From Bacilli bacterium (lineage in GTDB: Bacteria > Bacillota_I > Bacilli_A > RF39 > UBA660), in assembly GCA_036657555.1 (NCBI GenBank), contig JAVXGE010000001.1, positions 1 through 33,657 on the forward strand: a stretch of 33,657 bases of DNA. Reading direction: 5' to 3'. The notes beneath the pieces are model-generated. The model did no database searches, was not told the DNA's origin, and saw only the letters and a program-made list of their open reading frames with translations. The stretch's first letter is position 1. Every line of letters starts with the position of its first letter. The position numbers and the translations under genes are program-made. Positions 1 through 4,513 of the stretch are shown here, piece after piece.

Positions 1-82
1 AACTTGAGACATTTTCAAAAGTTAATACTTAAGACATTATCATAAATTAATCATACAATATATAAGGCCAATTCAATTTTTA

Positions 83-111
83 TTGTATAAATTTTCATTA
101 TTTGATATAAT
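83..111 (+). promoter_or_regulatory. Candidate sigma-A promoter of the 138..1085 bicistron
   Basis: -35-like TTGTAT (83-88), 17-nt spacer, extended -10 TGaTATAAT (103-111), about 25 nt upstream of the SD AGGAGG (125-130). Confidence 0.4.
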
Positions 112-137
112 TAAGTTGAATAATAGGAGGTGTAATT

Positions 138-665
138 ATGAATAAAGCAAATGTTTTTGATTTTTCAAAATGGTTTTTAGATAATAACCTTGATACACCT
201 AGAGATACTTTTAAAGGAAATATGAAACTTCAAAAATTATTATTTTTTGCTCAATTAATCAGTTTGGCAAAGAATGATGAATTATTATTTGATGATACTT
301 TTTGTGCGTTTGAAAATGGTATGGTATTAGAAGATATAAGGCTTAAATATAAAAATAATCTTAATGAATTATTAGAATACCACGCAAAAGATTTAACTCA
401 AAAAGAAAAAGAAGTATTAGAATTAACAAAAAATATATATGGAAATGAAAATGCTGATGCATTGTCAAAAATGTCTCATCAATTTGATTTTTGGACAAAA
501 TATTTTGAATCATCAACTGATAAAAATAATTTTAAAAATAAAGATAAGGCAAAGGTTCCTAATGAAGAATTAAAAAAAGAGTTATATGTGATTAAGGATG
601 TTCTAGATGCTTATGAAATCATGAATTCTGATGAATACAAAAATGTAGAAGATATGGATTACTGA
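138..665 (+). CDS. Panacea / DUF4065-domain protein (SocA/GepA/PanA-like putative antitoxin)
   Basis: 175-aa ORF with SD AGGAGG 7 nt upstream of the ATG. The protein carries the DUF4065 core by eye: GNMKLQKLLFFAQLISLAKNDELLFDDTFCAFENGMVLEDIRLKY. The C-terminal region is variable and acidic. Confidence 0.85.
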   Translation: MNKANVFDFSKWFLDNNLDTPRDTFKGNMKLQKLLFFAQLISLAKNDELLFDDTFCAFENGMVLEDIRLKYKNNLNELLEYHAKDLTQKEKEVLELTKNIYGNENADALSKMSHQFDFWTKYFESSTDKNNFKNKDKAKVPNEELKKELYVIKDVLDAYEIMNSDEYKNVEDMDY

Positions 666-668
666 TTT

Positions 669-1085
669 ATGGTCGATATTGGTATGTTGTTGTATTTTAT
701 TCCACCATATTTTGCCAGTGGATGTAAAAATACAAAAAGAAAAAAAAGATTAATGCTCGTCATTGACAAATGCATGCAAGACAATACTTTGTTATTGATA
801 AATATATCTAAAGTTGCTGGAAAACCAAATTGTTTCACATATCCATTTAATGTTTTAATTAGGAAATACAATCCGCCTTTACCAAGATTATCTTTTGCAA
901 AAATTAACGATAACTATATTGTGGACAATTTTCAAGGGCTAAATGATTATTTGTATAAAAGTGGACAAAAATTGGCTGTCGGAGAATTAGCAAATATTAC
1001 ACAAAGATACAACAACTATAAAAGTAAAAATAAAATTGAATTAATATCATTGACTAAAGCAGAATTCATGACAATAAATATATAA
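669..1085 (+). CDS. Hypothetical 138-aa protein with no recognisable family; candidate toxin/effector partner of the Panacea protein
   Basis: The ATG lies 3 nt after the TGA stop of the upstream gene and has no SD of its own, which suggests translational coupling. The reading frame is open for 417 nt in AT-rich DNA. The N-terminal ~60 aa is rich in Cys/Pro/aromatics and has a basic patch KNTKRKKR. G/C-ending codons are more frequent than in neighbouring genes. Coding status is not proven. Confidence 0.5.
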   Translation: MVDIGMLLYFIPPYFASGCKNTKRKKRLMLVIDKCMQDNTLLLINISKVAGKPNCFTYPFNVLIRKYNPPLPRLSFAKINDNYIVDNFQGLNDYLYKSGQKLAVGELANITQRYNNYKSKNKIELISLTKAEFMTINI

Positions 1086-1136
1086 AGTGCCTTATTATTT
1101 TTGGCCTATAAAATCATTATGGTAAGGGGTGTCATA

Positions 1137-1223
1137 ATGAAAGATGCAGTTCTAAACAAAGTTATCGAAATGGTTTGCAATGATTATTATTTAATAAAAA
1201 AAAGACTAAACTTTAATTCTTAG
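1137..1223 (+). CDS. Possible 28-aa small ORF (MKDAVLNKVIEMVCNDYYLIKKRLNFNS)
   Basis: Not in the ORF track because it is too short. A strong SD AAGGGG lies 7 nt upstream of ATG 1137. The stop TAG (1221-1223) sits inside the terminator hairpin. No homology recognised. Confidence 0.25.
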   Translation: MKDAVLNKVIEMVCNDYYLIKKRLNFNS

Positions 1224-1227
1224 TCTT
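1202..1227. terminator. Bidirectional intrinsic terminator between the TA-like module and the convergent ferredoxin operon
   Basis: 8-bp stem AAGACTAA (1202-1209) / TTAGTCTT (1220-1227). An A-run lies upstream and T-rich sequence downstream, so the minus-strand reading gives the stem followed by TTTTTTTT. Confidence 0.6.
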
Positions 1228-1710
1228 TTCTTTATTAATTAATTTCAACAAAGCTTCTACTTTTTCTTTTGGAAAATCAGCCGAAGCATTAGTTAATAAA
1301 TCCTTTAAAAAAGCGTTAACATTTTCACTTTGTGGAATCATAAAACCTGCTTCACGATAAATATCTTCAGCCATAATATGATTTGATTTAGCAATAGCTT
1401 TTGCTAAGATTTTTAAATTGTTATTATCTTCATTTTTTAAAACATTTAAAGCTATAGCTTCTTGTTCAATTTTGCTTTTAGCTAATGAACGCATTAAGGT
1501 GGTTATTTTTTCACTTTTTTCTAGTTCCTTAGGATATATTTTAGGAACCATTGTTATTGCATGTGAAGGACAAGCCTGCACACATTTCCCACAACCAATA
1601 CATTTGTCCTTATCAATAACACCATTTTCAGTATCAGCCGCTCCGTTAGGACAAACAAATAGACATAAACAATCTTTAGTACATAATTTAATATTTCTAA
1701 CCGCGTACAT
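1213..1710 (-). CDS. 4Fe-4S dicluster ferredoxin-domain protein with a ~110-aa helical C-terminal extension
   Basis: The N-terminus has one canonical CxxCxxCxxxCP motif (CIGCGKCVQACP) plus an atypical Cx3CxCx3CP (CTKDCLCLFVCP). Its SD AAGGAG lies in the last codons of the upstream gene, with a 2-nt gap to it. Confidence 0.8.
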   Translation of the reverse strand: MYAVRNIKLCTKDCLCLFVCPNGAADTENGVIDKDKCIGCGKCVQACPSHAITMVPKIYPKELEKSEKITTLMRSLAKSKIEQEAIALNVLKNEDNNNLKILAKAIAKSNHIMAEDIYREAGFMIPQSENVNAFLKDLLTNASADFPKEKVEALLKLINKEKTKN

Positions 1711-1712
1711 AC

Positions 1713-2375
1713 TTATGCTCCTTTCACTTGTAATATTTTTAAACTTGGTACTTTACATATAGGACAAACAGAAGGAACATCATCTCCTATATAAATAAAA
1801 CCACATATATCACATACATAAACATTAGTATTTTCTAAAAAAGATGACCCTTCTTTTTGAAATCGTTCCATTAAAGACTTTAACATAATTGTAGTTTTCT
1901 CACCCCAAGTAATAGCCCGTAAGGTTGCCCGATCATTATTTTCTAGGCATAATTCTTTAAGACGAGAATAATCTTTTTCTAAATTAATATTTACTTTTTC
2001 CAACAAATCATCATAGTTTTTATTTTCATTTAAGTTTCTTTTACTATCAAAATAATTTGCTAAATCATTAAATAAATTACTTTCTTCATCTAAATATTGT
2101 TTTTCACAACCTTTAGCTAAATTAGAACATATAGCCCCTAATTCACCGTAAGAAATCTCTCTTAATTCTTCATCATTTTCAGTAGGAATTACAACTTCCT
2201 TAACCGTTTCTTTTATTTCCTCAAAAGTATCTTTAGGAACTCCACAAATAGGACATTTCCAATCATTAGGTAAATCACTCCATTTTGTTCCTGGAGCAAT
2301 ACCTTTTTCAGGAATTCCTTTTTCTTCATCATATATATATCCACATATAGGACATTTGTATTTTTTCACAAACAT
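1713..2375 (-). CDS. Rubredoxin-domain / rubrerythrin-like protein (N-terminal rubredoxin, central helical domain, C-terminal rubredoxin-like CxxC..CxxC)
   Basis: N-terminus KCPICGYIY...[10 protein letters not shown] (rubredoxin); C-terminus [11 protein letters not shown]...CPICKVP (rubrerythrin-type C-terminus). I place the start at ATG 2375 ([12 protein letters not shown]) with SD AGAAAGAAGG, not at the ORF-track start of 2408. Confidence 0.8.
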
Positions 2376-2470
2376 ACGCCTTCTTTCTATAATTAAATTA
2401 TAGCACATTTATCATCTTTTGAATTAAAAAAATAATTACCGTGTTATAATATAAATGTAAGGAGTTTTTT

Positions 2471-3328
2471 ATGAAAAAATTATTATTAATTGTTAAAGGT
2501 TTTATTATGGGTATTGCTAATGTTATACCTGGAGTTAGCGGGGGGACCTTAGCTATTATTTTAGGAATATATGAGCAATTTATTAGTTCAATTAGCCATT
2601 TCTTTTCTAACTTTAAAGAAAACATAAGATTCTTAATTCCACTTTTTATTGGCCTAGGCCTAGCTATTATTACAATGAGTGGCGTTATTGATTACTCATT
2701 TACACATTTTCCAATTCCAACCACCATGTTTTTTGTCGGATTAGTAATAGGAGGAATCCCACTATTATACAATAAAGTTAAAGGAAAAAAGACTAATAAA
2801 GTAACCAGCTTATTAATAGCTTTATTTACTTTTTCATTAGTTATTTTTGTTGCTTTAGCCGATAAAATATTTGGTCACAGTCTTGCCGTAAACCTAACAT
2901 CTTTAAACCTAACCGGCTATATAACTTTATTTGTTGTTGGTGTTGTCGCAGCAGCAACAATGGTTGTCCCAGGTATTAGCGGTTCTTTAGTTTTAATGTT
3001 ATTAGGTTATTATTACCCTATTTTAGCTTTAATTAAAAGCATCATTCATTTTGAAAATCTAACAACTAATTTATTAGTAGCTACCGTTTTTGGACTTGGC
3101 GTTATTTTAGGTATTGTTCTTGTTTCTAAATTAATTGAATACTTATTTAAAAAGTATGAAGTAAAAACCTATTATGGGGTTTTAGGCTTTATTTTTGCAT
3201 CAATTATTGCAATTCCTATTTCAACTTTTAGTACAATAACAATATCAGCTGACATTTTAAATATTGTAATAGGTTGTTTTGTTTTAGGAATAGGTATGGT
3301 TATATCATATCAGTTAGGTAAAAAATAG
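2471..3328 (+). CDS. DUF368-family polytopic membrane protein (PopT-type polyprenyl-phosphate transporter candidate)
   Basis: Hallmark N-terminal motif GIANVIPGVSGGTLAIILGIYE with an internal repeat VPGISGSLVLMLLGYY; multiple TM segments; SD AAGGAG. Confidence 0.85.
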   Translation: MKKLLLIVKGFIMGIANVIPGVSGGTLAIILGIYEQFISSISHFFSNFKENIRFLIPLFIGLGLAIITMSGVIDYSFTHFPIPTTMFFVGLVIGGIPLLYNKVKGKKTNKVTSLLIALFTFSLVIFVALADKIFGHSLAVNLTSLNLTGYITLFVVGVVAAATMVVPGISGSLVLMLLGYYYPILALIKSIIHFENLTTNLLVATVFGLGVILGIVLVSKLIEYLFKKYEVKTYYGVLGFIFASIIAIPISTFSTITISADILNIVIGCFVLGIGMVISYQLGKK

Positions 3329-3420
3329 ATAAACTCTATTTTTTTTAAAAATAAAAGTTTTCAAGCTTTCACGTTTACTTTATCTAAAAAAAATGTTAAA
3401 ATTAATACAAGGTGATAGGT

Positions 3421-4513
3421 ATGGAAGATAGTGACTTATTAAATATATATAAGAATTATCAAAAAAAAATAACTGAATTATTGGTGTTACTTTGAAGTCG
3501 CTAAAAAAGAAGAAAAAATTAAACAATTAGAAATCATAATGAATGAATCTAATTTTTGGAATGATAGCTCTTTTGCTAATCACATTATTGAAGAAGTAAA
3601 TAGTTTAAAAAAGACCATTAAAAATTTTATCGAATTAAATAATAAAATAACTAGTAATTTGGATTTAATTAATTATCTAGATGATGAAATAAAAACTTTA
3701 TTAGAAAATGATATAGTTTTAATTGATAAAAGTTTAGAAGAATTAGAAATAGCCGTTTTATTAAATGGTAATTATGATAAATATAATGCCGTTTTAGAAA
3801 TACACCCCGGTGCGGGGGGAACTGAAAGCTGTGATTGGGCCAATATGTTATACCGGATGTACACAAAATGGTGCAATAATAAAAATTATAAATATGAAAT
3901 TATTGAAGAACAAAAAGGTGAAGAAGCAGGCATTAAAAGTGTTACCATGATTATATATGGCATGAATGTTTTTGGATATTTAAAAAATGAAAAAGGCGTT
4001 CATCGCTTAGTAAGAATAAGCCCTTTTGATACTAATGCAAGAAGGCACACATCATTTGCTTCTGTTGACGTCACCCCTTATATTGCTAATAGTGAAATTG
4101 AAGTTGATATTAAACCTAATGATTTAAAAATAGATGTTTATAGGAGTACTGGTGCCGGTGGTCAAAGTGTCAATACCACTGATAGTGCTGTTAGAATAAC
4201 CCATTTACCAACTAAAACCGTTGTTACATGTCAAAATGAAAGAAGTCAAATTCAAAATAAAGAAAAAGCTTTAGAAATTTTAAAAAACAAATTATATCAA
4301 TTAGAAATAGAAAAAAAAGAACAAGCCTTAAAAAATTTAAAAGGTCAACCAAGTGATATTAATTTTGGCTCTCAAATAAGAAGCTATGTTATGCATCCTT
4401 ATAGTATGGTTAAAGATCATCGAACGAACGTTGAAACAAGTAATGTTTCAAAAGTTCTAGACGGCGATATTGATATGTTTATTACAGCTAATTTAAAAAG
4501 GACGGTGAAATAA
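3421..4513 (+). CDS. prfB: Peptide chain release factor 2, requiring a programmed +1 ribosomal frameshift
   Basis: ATG 3421 (SD AAGGTGA) opens a 24-codon frame ending CTT TGA (3490-3495). The +1 frame (GAA at 3494) is continuous with ORF 3539..4513. RF2 motifs SPF (RISPFD) and GGQ (GAGGQSVN) are present. Confidence 0.9.
3484..3496 (+). other. prfB +1 frameshift site (internal SD-like GGTG, slippery CTT, in-frame TGA)
   Basis: The sequence tt GGTG tta CTT TGA a is the same architecture as the autoregulatory RF2 site conserved in bacteria. Confidence 0.85.

Follow-up and report, generated by a model that had tools for sequence, protein, structure and literature searches.

A two-gene unit near the left end of the stretch of DNA analyzed here (the window; 33,657 nt of contig JAVXGE010000001.1, 33.7 kb long with 29% GC and assigned by NCBI to a "Bacilli bacterium" metagenome-assembled genome [MAG]) is probably a bicistronic type II toxin-antitoxin module of the PanAT kind. 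The module spans positions 83 to 1243 and pairs a Panacea-domain antitoxin, PanA, with a MazF-like toxin, PanT. The first gene, panA (open reading frame 1 [ORF1]; positions 138 to 665, + strand), runs from an ATG to a TGA stop at 663 to 665 and encodes 175 aa, and the second, panT (ORF2; positions 669 to 1085, + strand), also starts with ATG and encodes 138 aa. Both reading frames and their 3-nt spacing agree with an earlier note on this DNA, made from the sequence alone, which proposed a two-gene toxin-antitoxin-like module of the PanA-PanT type with ORF1 as the Panacea antitoxin. That proposal is supported and came through the computational refutation tests. The note also called ORF2 an unclassifiable, novel partner, and this description has to be given up: ORF2 has a predicted MazF/PemK fold, profile homology to MazF, and a phage homolog that is already catalogued. 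By sequence profile and structural model, ORF2 is a very divergent MazF/PemK-fold protein, homologous to members of the PanT cluster designated T23 by Kurata et al. (2022; PMC8832971).

The Panacea/DUF4065 identity of ORF1, which the earlier note had read from the letters, is borne out by a match to PF13274 (SocA_Panacea) over residues 31 to 119 (E = 4.1e-12), with 47.5 bits against a gathering cutoff of 25.7 and profile positions 1 to 112 of 113 covered. ORF1 also matches phrog_1281 (E = 1.4e-27), it has 163 homologs, and its NCBI product name is "Panacea domain-containing protein." Against the NCBIfam SocA equivalog NF047745, it scores 24.6 bits, below the cutoff of 190. PanA consists of a single Panacea domain, without an additional N-terminal domain. 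Its AlphaFold2 (AF2) model, with a predicted local distance difference test score (pLDDT) of 91.4, comprises the Panacea core, a long helix at residues 142 to 162, and a low-confidence tail at residues 165 to 175. This tail is acidic (...EDMDY), and E171, D174, and Y175 are each at least 90% conserved despite the low pLDDT. Neither a sequence relative nor a structural relative of PanA was found in the PDB. The ratio of nonsynonymous to synonymous substitution rates (dN/dS) of panA is 0.07 to 0.16 in the least saturated pairs, far below 1, so that this gene is under purifying selection.

The earlier note had made its proposal conditional on conserved homologs of ORF2, and these exist: 70 close homologs of 130 to 150 aa share 54 to 82% identity with it, and a profile search run exhaustively over 1.84 billion representatives yielded 106 clusters at 50% identity, all of about 110 to 155 aa. 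ORF2 matches phrog_13386 (E = 1.6e-16), a family without an assigned function. Its AF2 model, built with 28 homologs, has a pLDDT of 87.6 and a predicted template-modeling score (pTM) of 0.84. When this model was compared with the PDB by Foldseek, ranks 1 to 39 were all MazF, EndoA, PemK, or MoxT structures, the best at E = 1.7e-4, and the MazF-type matches had a probability of 1.0 and template-modeling scores (TMt) of 0.6 to 0.73. Phage "PemK-like" proteins rank top in a structural search of BFVD. We also searched by sequence, using a profile of the close ORF2 homologs (A1) and a broader profile of 85 family members (A2). The A2 profile matches the MazF proteins of S. aureus, B. cereus, B. 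anthracis, and B. subtilis at E values of 3e-6 to 1.4e-4, the S. aureus match being the one at 3e-6, and 8 of the 85 family members individually match PF02452 (E ≤ 0.01). An hhalign comparison with B. subtilis EndoA (BsMazF), which is identical to PDB chain 4me7_A, gave E = 4.7e-4 and a probability of 33% against this single-sequence template. The C-terminal helix of the ORF2 model, residues 104 to 120, corresponds to the long helix of the MazF fold. An HTH-like (helix-turn-helix-like) stretch that the earlier note had taken as a hint of DNA binding sits in this very helix, and we rejected an HTH or DNA-binding role for ORF2 on the strength of the AF2 model.

The putative active site can be followed across the family. 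The catalytic Arg of MazF, which we take to be R25 in B. subtilis MazF and R29 in E. coli MazF, aligns with R27 of ORF2: hhalign pairs R27 with BsMazF R25 and S75 with S73, the conserved Ser of the "DSV" strand, and the HMMER alignment likewise pairs R27 with the catalytic Arg and S75 with the "DSV"-strand Ser. A basic patch, KNTKRKKR, that had been singled out in ORF2 is indeed present, but it ends in R27 and thus runs into the residue aligned with the MazF catalytic Arg. Among the 85 family members, R27 is conserved in 81, S/T47 in 79, K52 in 79, N61 in 74, P70 in 80, and S/T75 in 84; the MazF-type Arg kept in these 81 members belongs to an "RP.LV" motif. The catalytic Thr or Ser of MazF, presumably T48 in B. 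subtilis MazF, lies at the end of β3; in ORF2, S47 lies at the end of a predicted strand (residues 40 to 48; β3), three residues upstream of A50. The panT gene has a dN/dS of 0.09 to 0.27 in the least saturated pairs, and the protein is therefore under purifying selection, a check that does not refute the pair.

Some results weigh against reading the pair as a toxin-antitoxin module with a MazF-like toxin. On its own, ORF2 has no Pfam match at E ≤ 1 and nothing useful in NCBIfam, so that it lies below every curated family threshold, and the A1 profile searched against PDB sequences returns chance matches and no MazF. In both the HMMER and the hhalign alignment, the MazF catalytic Thr48 faces the variable A50 and not a Ser or Thr. 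Neither protein is matched by any PADLOC model, and T23 is marked "NoTest," that is, predicted only, in Dataset S1 of Kurata et al. (PMC8832971). From the unconserved Thr, the subthreshold scores, and the "NoTest" mark, it could be argued that PanT is a catalytically dead or nontoxic MazF-fold protein, such as an RNA-binding regulator, and that the pair is no toxin-antitoxin system at all. We consider this unlikely: purifying selection is strong, the near-invariant polar set R27, S/T47, K52, N61, and S/T75 is typical of an active site, the gene is strictly linked to an antitoxin-family gene with overlapping stop and start codons (33/33 loci, described below), and other MazF-like PanTs proved toxic in tests (Kurata et al. 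2022).

The unconserved Thr would also suit a different toxin within the same PanA:PanT pair, namely, a CcdB-like protein whose SH3-like barrel poisons DNA gyrase instead of cutting RNA. CcdB structures do appear in the PDB Foldseek list, at E values of 0.16 or worse (0.16 to 0.44; TMt of ~0.6), and the HHpred list for T23, a cluster annotated as "Endoribonuclease MazF (99.67%)," also contains CcdB at 99.03% (Kurata Dataset S1, PMC8832971). However, the best 39 structural matches of ORF2 are all of the MazF type, with E values about 1,000-fold better than those of CcdB; sequence-profile matches are to MazF, EndoA, and PemK only; and the MazF-type Arg of the "RP.LV" motif is retained in 81/85 members. 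A gyrase poison is thus very unlikely, and a MazF-like PanT remains the preferred identity of ORF2.

The pairing of PanA with a MazF-like PanT has a direct precedent. Kurata et al. (2022) list the pair of phage phiCT19406B as PanT cluster T23 in Dataset S1 (PMC8832971). In this phage, the genes for a "SocA family protein" (YP_009276959) and, after it, an "xkdS-like protein" (YP_009276960) lie between the endolysin gene and attR. ORF2 is 34% identical to YP_009276960 in a tblastn comparison (E = 7e-8), the hidden Markov models (HMMs) of the family match the same protein at E values of 3.5e-15 and 7.7e-44, and ORF1 is 36% identical to the phiCT19406B PanA (E = 1.8e-25). T23 has nine entries, among them ones from Domibacillus, Virgibacillus, E. 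faecium, Lachnospiraceae, Thermoanaerobacterales, and the two C. tetani phages (PMC8832971). We found no study of T23-type pairs in the later literature. Among other MazF-like PanTs, those of P. moraviensis (T6) and B. ruminantium (T25) are toxic, are rescued by their PanAs, and inhibit translation, and the P. moraviensis pair forms a complex with PanA in pull-down experiments (PMC8832971).

The GenBank name "xkdS-like" is used without profile support in the C. tetani phages phiCT19406B and phiCTC2B (locus L005, NC_030947.1 positions 36600 to 37067; KM983331, KM983334, and NC_030951). Taken literally, the product name of YP_009276960 would make ORF2 a phage structural, XkdS-like protein. This is exceedingly improbable, as neither YP_009276960 nor ORF2 matches any Pfam family, the predicted fold is that of MazF, and in the phage the gene is found beyond the lysis genes, not within the structural module. 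We therefore rejected the annotation, which lacks Pfam support, and treat the phage PanT homolog as a member of the MazF-fold PanT family.

To describe the genomic setting of the family, we used related loci found with profiles A1 and A5. With the window excluded, 33 of these loci have upstream DNA: 19 are cellular (L001 to L004, L006 to L014, L016, L017, L019, L021, L022, and L037), and 14 are viral loci from IMG/VR (L023 to L036). The GenBank phage locus L005 is additional to the 33. A PanA homolog lies directly upstream of the ORF2 homolog in all 33 loci and also in L005, and the end of panA and the start of panT either overlap or are 0 to 3 nt apart across them. The recurrent adjacency to Panacea genes on which the earlier note had staked its proposal is thus present throughout. 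Kurata et al. counted a gene as a PanA partner when it lay no more than 100 nt away on the same strand, and the gap here is 3 nt; conservation in their style, with PanA followed by PanT in the face of differing flanks, is seen in 33/33 loci. The identities of ORF1 and ORF2 to their counterparts also drop in parallel from locus to locus (71/70, 49/56, and 36/34%).

The flanking genes vary by lineage. They include Fic and a type I restriction-modification system (adjoining the pair in L001), AsnRS, Ldh and AAA_14 ATPases, HtrA, rpsF-ssb-rpsR followed by DnaC-like genes, a prophage early region (within which L021 lies), and phage tail and lysis modules; in the IMG/VR loci, the pair adjoins tail, lysis, and anti-repressor genes. 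The A1 clade itself has no relatives in IMG/VR. Because the flanks differ and the pair is conserved, the pair is a mobile two-gene unit, and it travels as such among low-GC Bacillota and their prophages. The earlier note had suspected a horizontal origin from an excess of G/C-ending codons in ORF2. The GC content at third codon positions (GC3) of ORF2 is indeed weakly raised (0.237, compared to 0.160 ± 0.032 in 38 other ORFs of the window; z of ~2.4), but its total GC, at 0.269, does not reach the window mean of 0.308, and the GC3 of ORF1 is ordinary (0.142). We rejected codon bias as proof of horizontal transfer, since it is too weak for that purpose; the differing flanks and a recombinase gene beside the closest relative are better evidence for the same conclusion.

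The layout of the two genes is that of a coupled operon. The junction (positions 663 to 671, + strand) consists of the TGA stop, the 3-nt spacer ttt, and the ATG of panT, which has no Shine-Dalgarno (SD) sequence of its own: as the earlier note stated, no AGGAGG-like element precedes ATG 669. In 14 related loci, the junction is a TAATG or ATGA overlap or a gap of 0 to 3 nt. Upstream, the SD sequence AGGAGG of panA (positions 125 to 130, + strand) lies 7 nt 5' of ATG 138, as judged from the sequence and from related loci. A promoter-like element (positions 83 to 111, + strand) combines a -35 TTGTAT (83 to 88), a 17-nt spacer, and an extended -10 TGaTATAAT (103 to 111). The order (T)GATATAAT ... 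AGGAGGTG ... ATG, in which GATATAAT is the -10, recurs 5' of panA in most related loci. The claim that the unit has its own promoter-like element is therefore upheld by its reading and its recurrence, but not by a simple consensus promoter scan, in which the element at 83 to 111 fell below the threshold and went unlisted because its -35 fits just 3/6 positions.

ORF1 and ORF2 share one reading frame, and only TGA TTT stands between them. At this point, the closest relative (P0002; 82% identity; locus L037) reads TAA TTA, with a TAA stop, 3 nt, and ATG, and in most other relatives the two genes overlap in a frame-shifted TAATG. A PanA-PanT fusion, made by read-through of the TGA or by translation under genetic code 4, was considered and ruled out by the prfB site, the TGA stops, the Trp codon, and the TAA or overlapping junctions of relatives. 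The prfB gene, for release factor 2 (RF2), at window positions 3421 to 4513, contains a canonical programmed +1 frameshift site, CTT-TGA. Its short ORF runs from ATG 3421 to CTT (3490 to 3492) and TGA (3493 to 3495), with an SD-like GGTG at 3484 to 3487, and the long PCRF/RF-1 ORF (3539 to 4513 in the mechanical listing) extends without a stop as far upstream as 3494 in the +1 frame. UGA is therefore a stop codon in this organism. In addition, 4 of the 40 ORFs in the window end in TGA, and Trp is encoded by TGG. Because the TGA is a genuine stop codon in this genome, the ORF1-TGA-TTT-ORF2 arrangement is not a fusion.

If the pair is a toxin-antitoxin module, the single extended -10 promoter would drive panA, and panT would be expressed by translational coupling. 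PanT would act as a sequence-specific, ribosome-independent endoribonuclease whose cutting of RNA arrests growth, with R27 (the equivalent of B. subtilis MazF R25) and the hydroxyl residue S47 at the end of β3 as proposed catalytic residues. PanA, as a single-domain Panacea protein, would bind PanT directly and hold it inactive. By analogy with characterized pairs, PanT may thus be toxic and block translation through RNA cutting, and PanA may neutralize it by direct binding; a standalone Panacea domain is able to neutralize directly (Ernits et al. 2023, PMC10440598). The acidic C-terminal tail of PanA, predicted to be disordered when alone, may occlude the RNA groove of the toxin in the manner of MazE. 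We regard the tail as a candidate toxin-binding element because of this analogy with MazE and because Ernits et al. (2023, PMC10440598) describe a mode of "linear neutralisation."

The biological role of the module may be maintenance of the element that carries it or anti-phage defense. In the latter case, it would be not a mere addiction module but a device of abortive infection or superinfection exclusion, in which the Panacea core senses a phage cue and releases the MazF-like RNase. The relatives are prophage cargo, with the phiCT19406B pair placed between endolysin and attR, the IMG/VR pairs beside tail, lysis, and anti-repressor genes, L021 in a prophage early region, and L001 beside Fic and type I restriction-modification, and a sensor role of Panacea has been hypothesized (Ernits et al. 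2023, PMC10440598). That hypothesis was, however, proposed mainly for multidomain PanAs. The window pair itself sits beside housekeeping genes with no other defense genes nearby, and PADLOC has no match. We view defense as the main role as a possibility worth keeping in mind but doubtful. A more specific version, which is speculative and in our judgment less likely still, is that in the T23-like clade the neutralizing element is the acidic C-terminal PanA tail (...EE-L/M-DY), which would plug the MazF RNA groove in a "linear," MazE-like way and leave the Panacea core free as a sensor of phage cues. Were this true, the pair would be a prophage-borne abortive-infection switch in gut Bacillota and would offer the Panacea-as-sensor hypothesis a minimal test case with a single domain. 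Toxin-antitoxin function of the PanAT kind is the reading we prefer for the module as a whole.

The right end of the module is formed by a bidirectional, intrinsic-terminator-like hairpin (positions 1186 to 1243, both strands) with 24-nt arms that are 92% complementary, an A-tract on the 5' side, and a T-tract on the 3' side. The hairpin has a folding energy of -14.8 kcal/mol (z of -5.7) on the + strand and of -19.5 kcal/mol (z of -6.5) on the - strand and is common to the module and the convergent ferredoxin-like gene at 1213 to 1710 (- strand). The earlier note had closed the unit with a terminator. A fold of A-tract, hairpin, and T-tract does lie there, but it is bidirectional and shared, and a GC-dependent consensus terminator scan found none.

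Directly downstream of panT lies what appears to be the remnant of a third gene (positions 1086 to 1223, + strand), with a leader, an SD-like AAGGGG at 1124 to 1129, and a 28-aa ORF at 1137 to 1223. In L037, the locus of the closest relative, a terminator lies beyond the pair, and after it come a 76-aa ORF and a gene for a serine recombinase/DNA invertase (phrog_125; E = 1e-45). A DNA alignment shows window positions 1086 to ~1197 to be homologous to the L037 leader and approximately the first 18 codons of the 76-aa ORF (L037 positions 613 to 910), and the homology ends at the terminator of the ferredoxin gene. Since it stops after ~18 codons, we interpret ORF 1137 to 1223 as a remnant of the 76-aa gene. 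The third-gene stretch is absent from related loci other than L037. Judging from this comparison of sequences, the module is probably a stump left by a recombinase-bearing mobile element.

Three independent assemblies of this DNA (the window, L038, and L039) end no more than ~140 nt 5' of panA or inside panA, which suggests a repeat or a strain-variable junction directly to the left of the module. A 25-nt inverted repeat (62 to 86 and 1071 to 1095; 76% complementary) was considered as a pair of terminal repeats and set aside as probably due to chance, because there are 31 such pairs in 1.4 kb of this AT-rich DNA. An Rfam scan of positions 1 to 3600 gave no match. To the right, the convergent gene at 1213 to 1710 (- strand) encodes a 4Fe-4S ferredoxin-domain protein, and the product of the gene at 1713 to 2408 (- strand) has a rubredoxin domain at its N terminus and a rubrerythrin-type rubredoxin-like domain at its C terminus. 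The rest of the scanned window is housekeeping in content (RF2, FtsE/FtsX, RecG, YchF, SSB, and U32 peptidase), consistent with the description of the pair as an accessory module in an otherwise core window.

The pairing of PanA with a MazF-like PanT was catalogued in 2022, and the window pair is a new, divergent member of it. The finding accordingly adds little in kind, being neither a new toxin fold nor a new type of system. Its use lies in giving an identity to an ORF that is "hypothetical" in gut Bacilli MAGs and misnamed "xkdS-like" in C. tetani phages, which we place in a MazF-fold PanT family related to T23. In this sample, a single-domain PanA accompanies the family without exception. 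The family would be well suited to studying how a standalone Panacea domain neutralizes a MazF-type RNase because it is compact (106 clusters at 50% identity), is strictly coinherited with PanA, and has a defined set of near-invariant residues.

Among known systems, PanAT modules with a MazF-like PanT are the closest. They share with the window pair a single-domain Panacea antitoxin in first position, a MazF/PemK-fold partner of ~135 to 155 aa that follows 0 to 3 nt later, and the character of a mobile, partly phage-borne module. The window clade differs from the T23 phage member in that it comes from gut "Bacilli bacterium" MAGs and is only ~34% identical to it. After the conserved Arg, the window clade reads RL and not RP, the common form, and it carries K48 at a position that is Ser in most of the family.

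With MazEF, PemIK, and EndoAI (YdcDE), the module shares the toxin fold, the β1-β2 Arg, the "DSV/PSF" Ser, the C-terminal helix, an antitoxin-first, translationally coupled operon, and an acidic antitoxin C terminus that ends in an aromatic residue. In contrast to those systems, its antitoxin is a Panacea protein (33/33 loci) without an AbrB/SpoVT or ribbon-helix-helix DNA-binding domain, its toxin is ~20 to 25 residues longer and falls below the PF02452 threshold, and the aligned column of the window PanT lacks the catalytic Thr. The presence of a Panacea protein upstream instead of a MazE-type antitoxin is the known partner swap of PanA for MazE. Similarity to SocAB of Caulobacter, a type VI system whose SocA is the founding Panacea protein, is confined to the Panacea domain of ORF1: the partner here has the MazF fold and is not SocB, an inhibitor of the DnaN sliding clamp, and SocA is a ClpXP adaptor, whereas validated PanAs act through direct binding. 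CcdAB shares the SH3-like barrel superfold of the toxin (Foldseek TMt of ~0.6), but its structural and sequence similarity is far weaker than that of MazF, and its antitoxin is unrelated.

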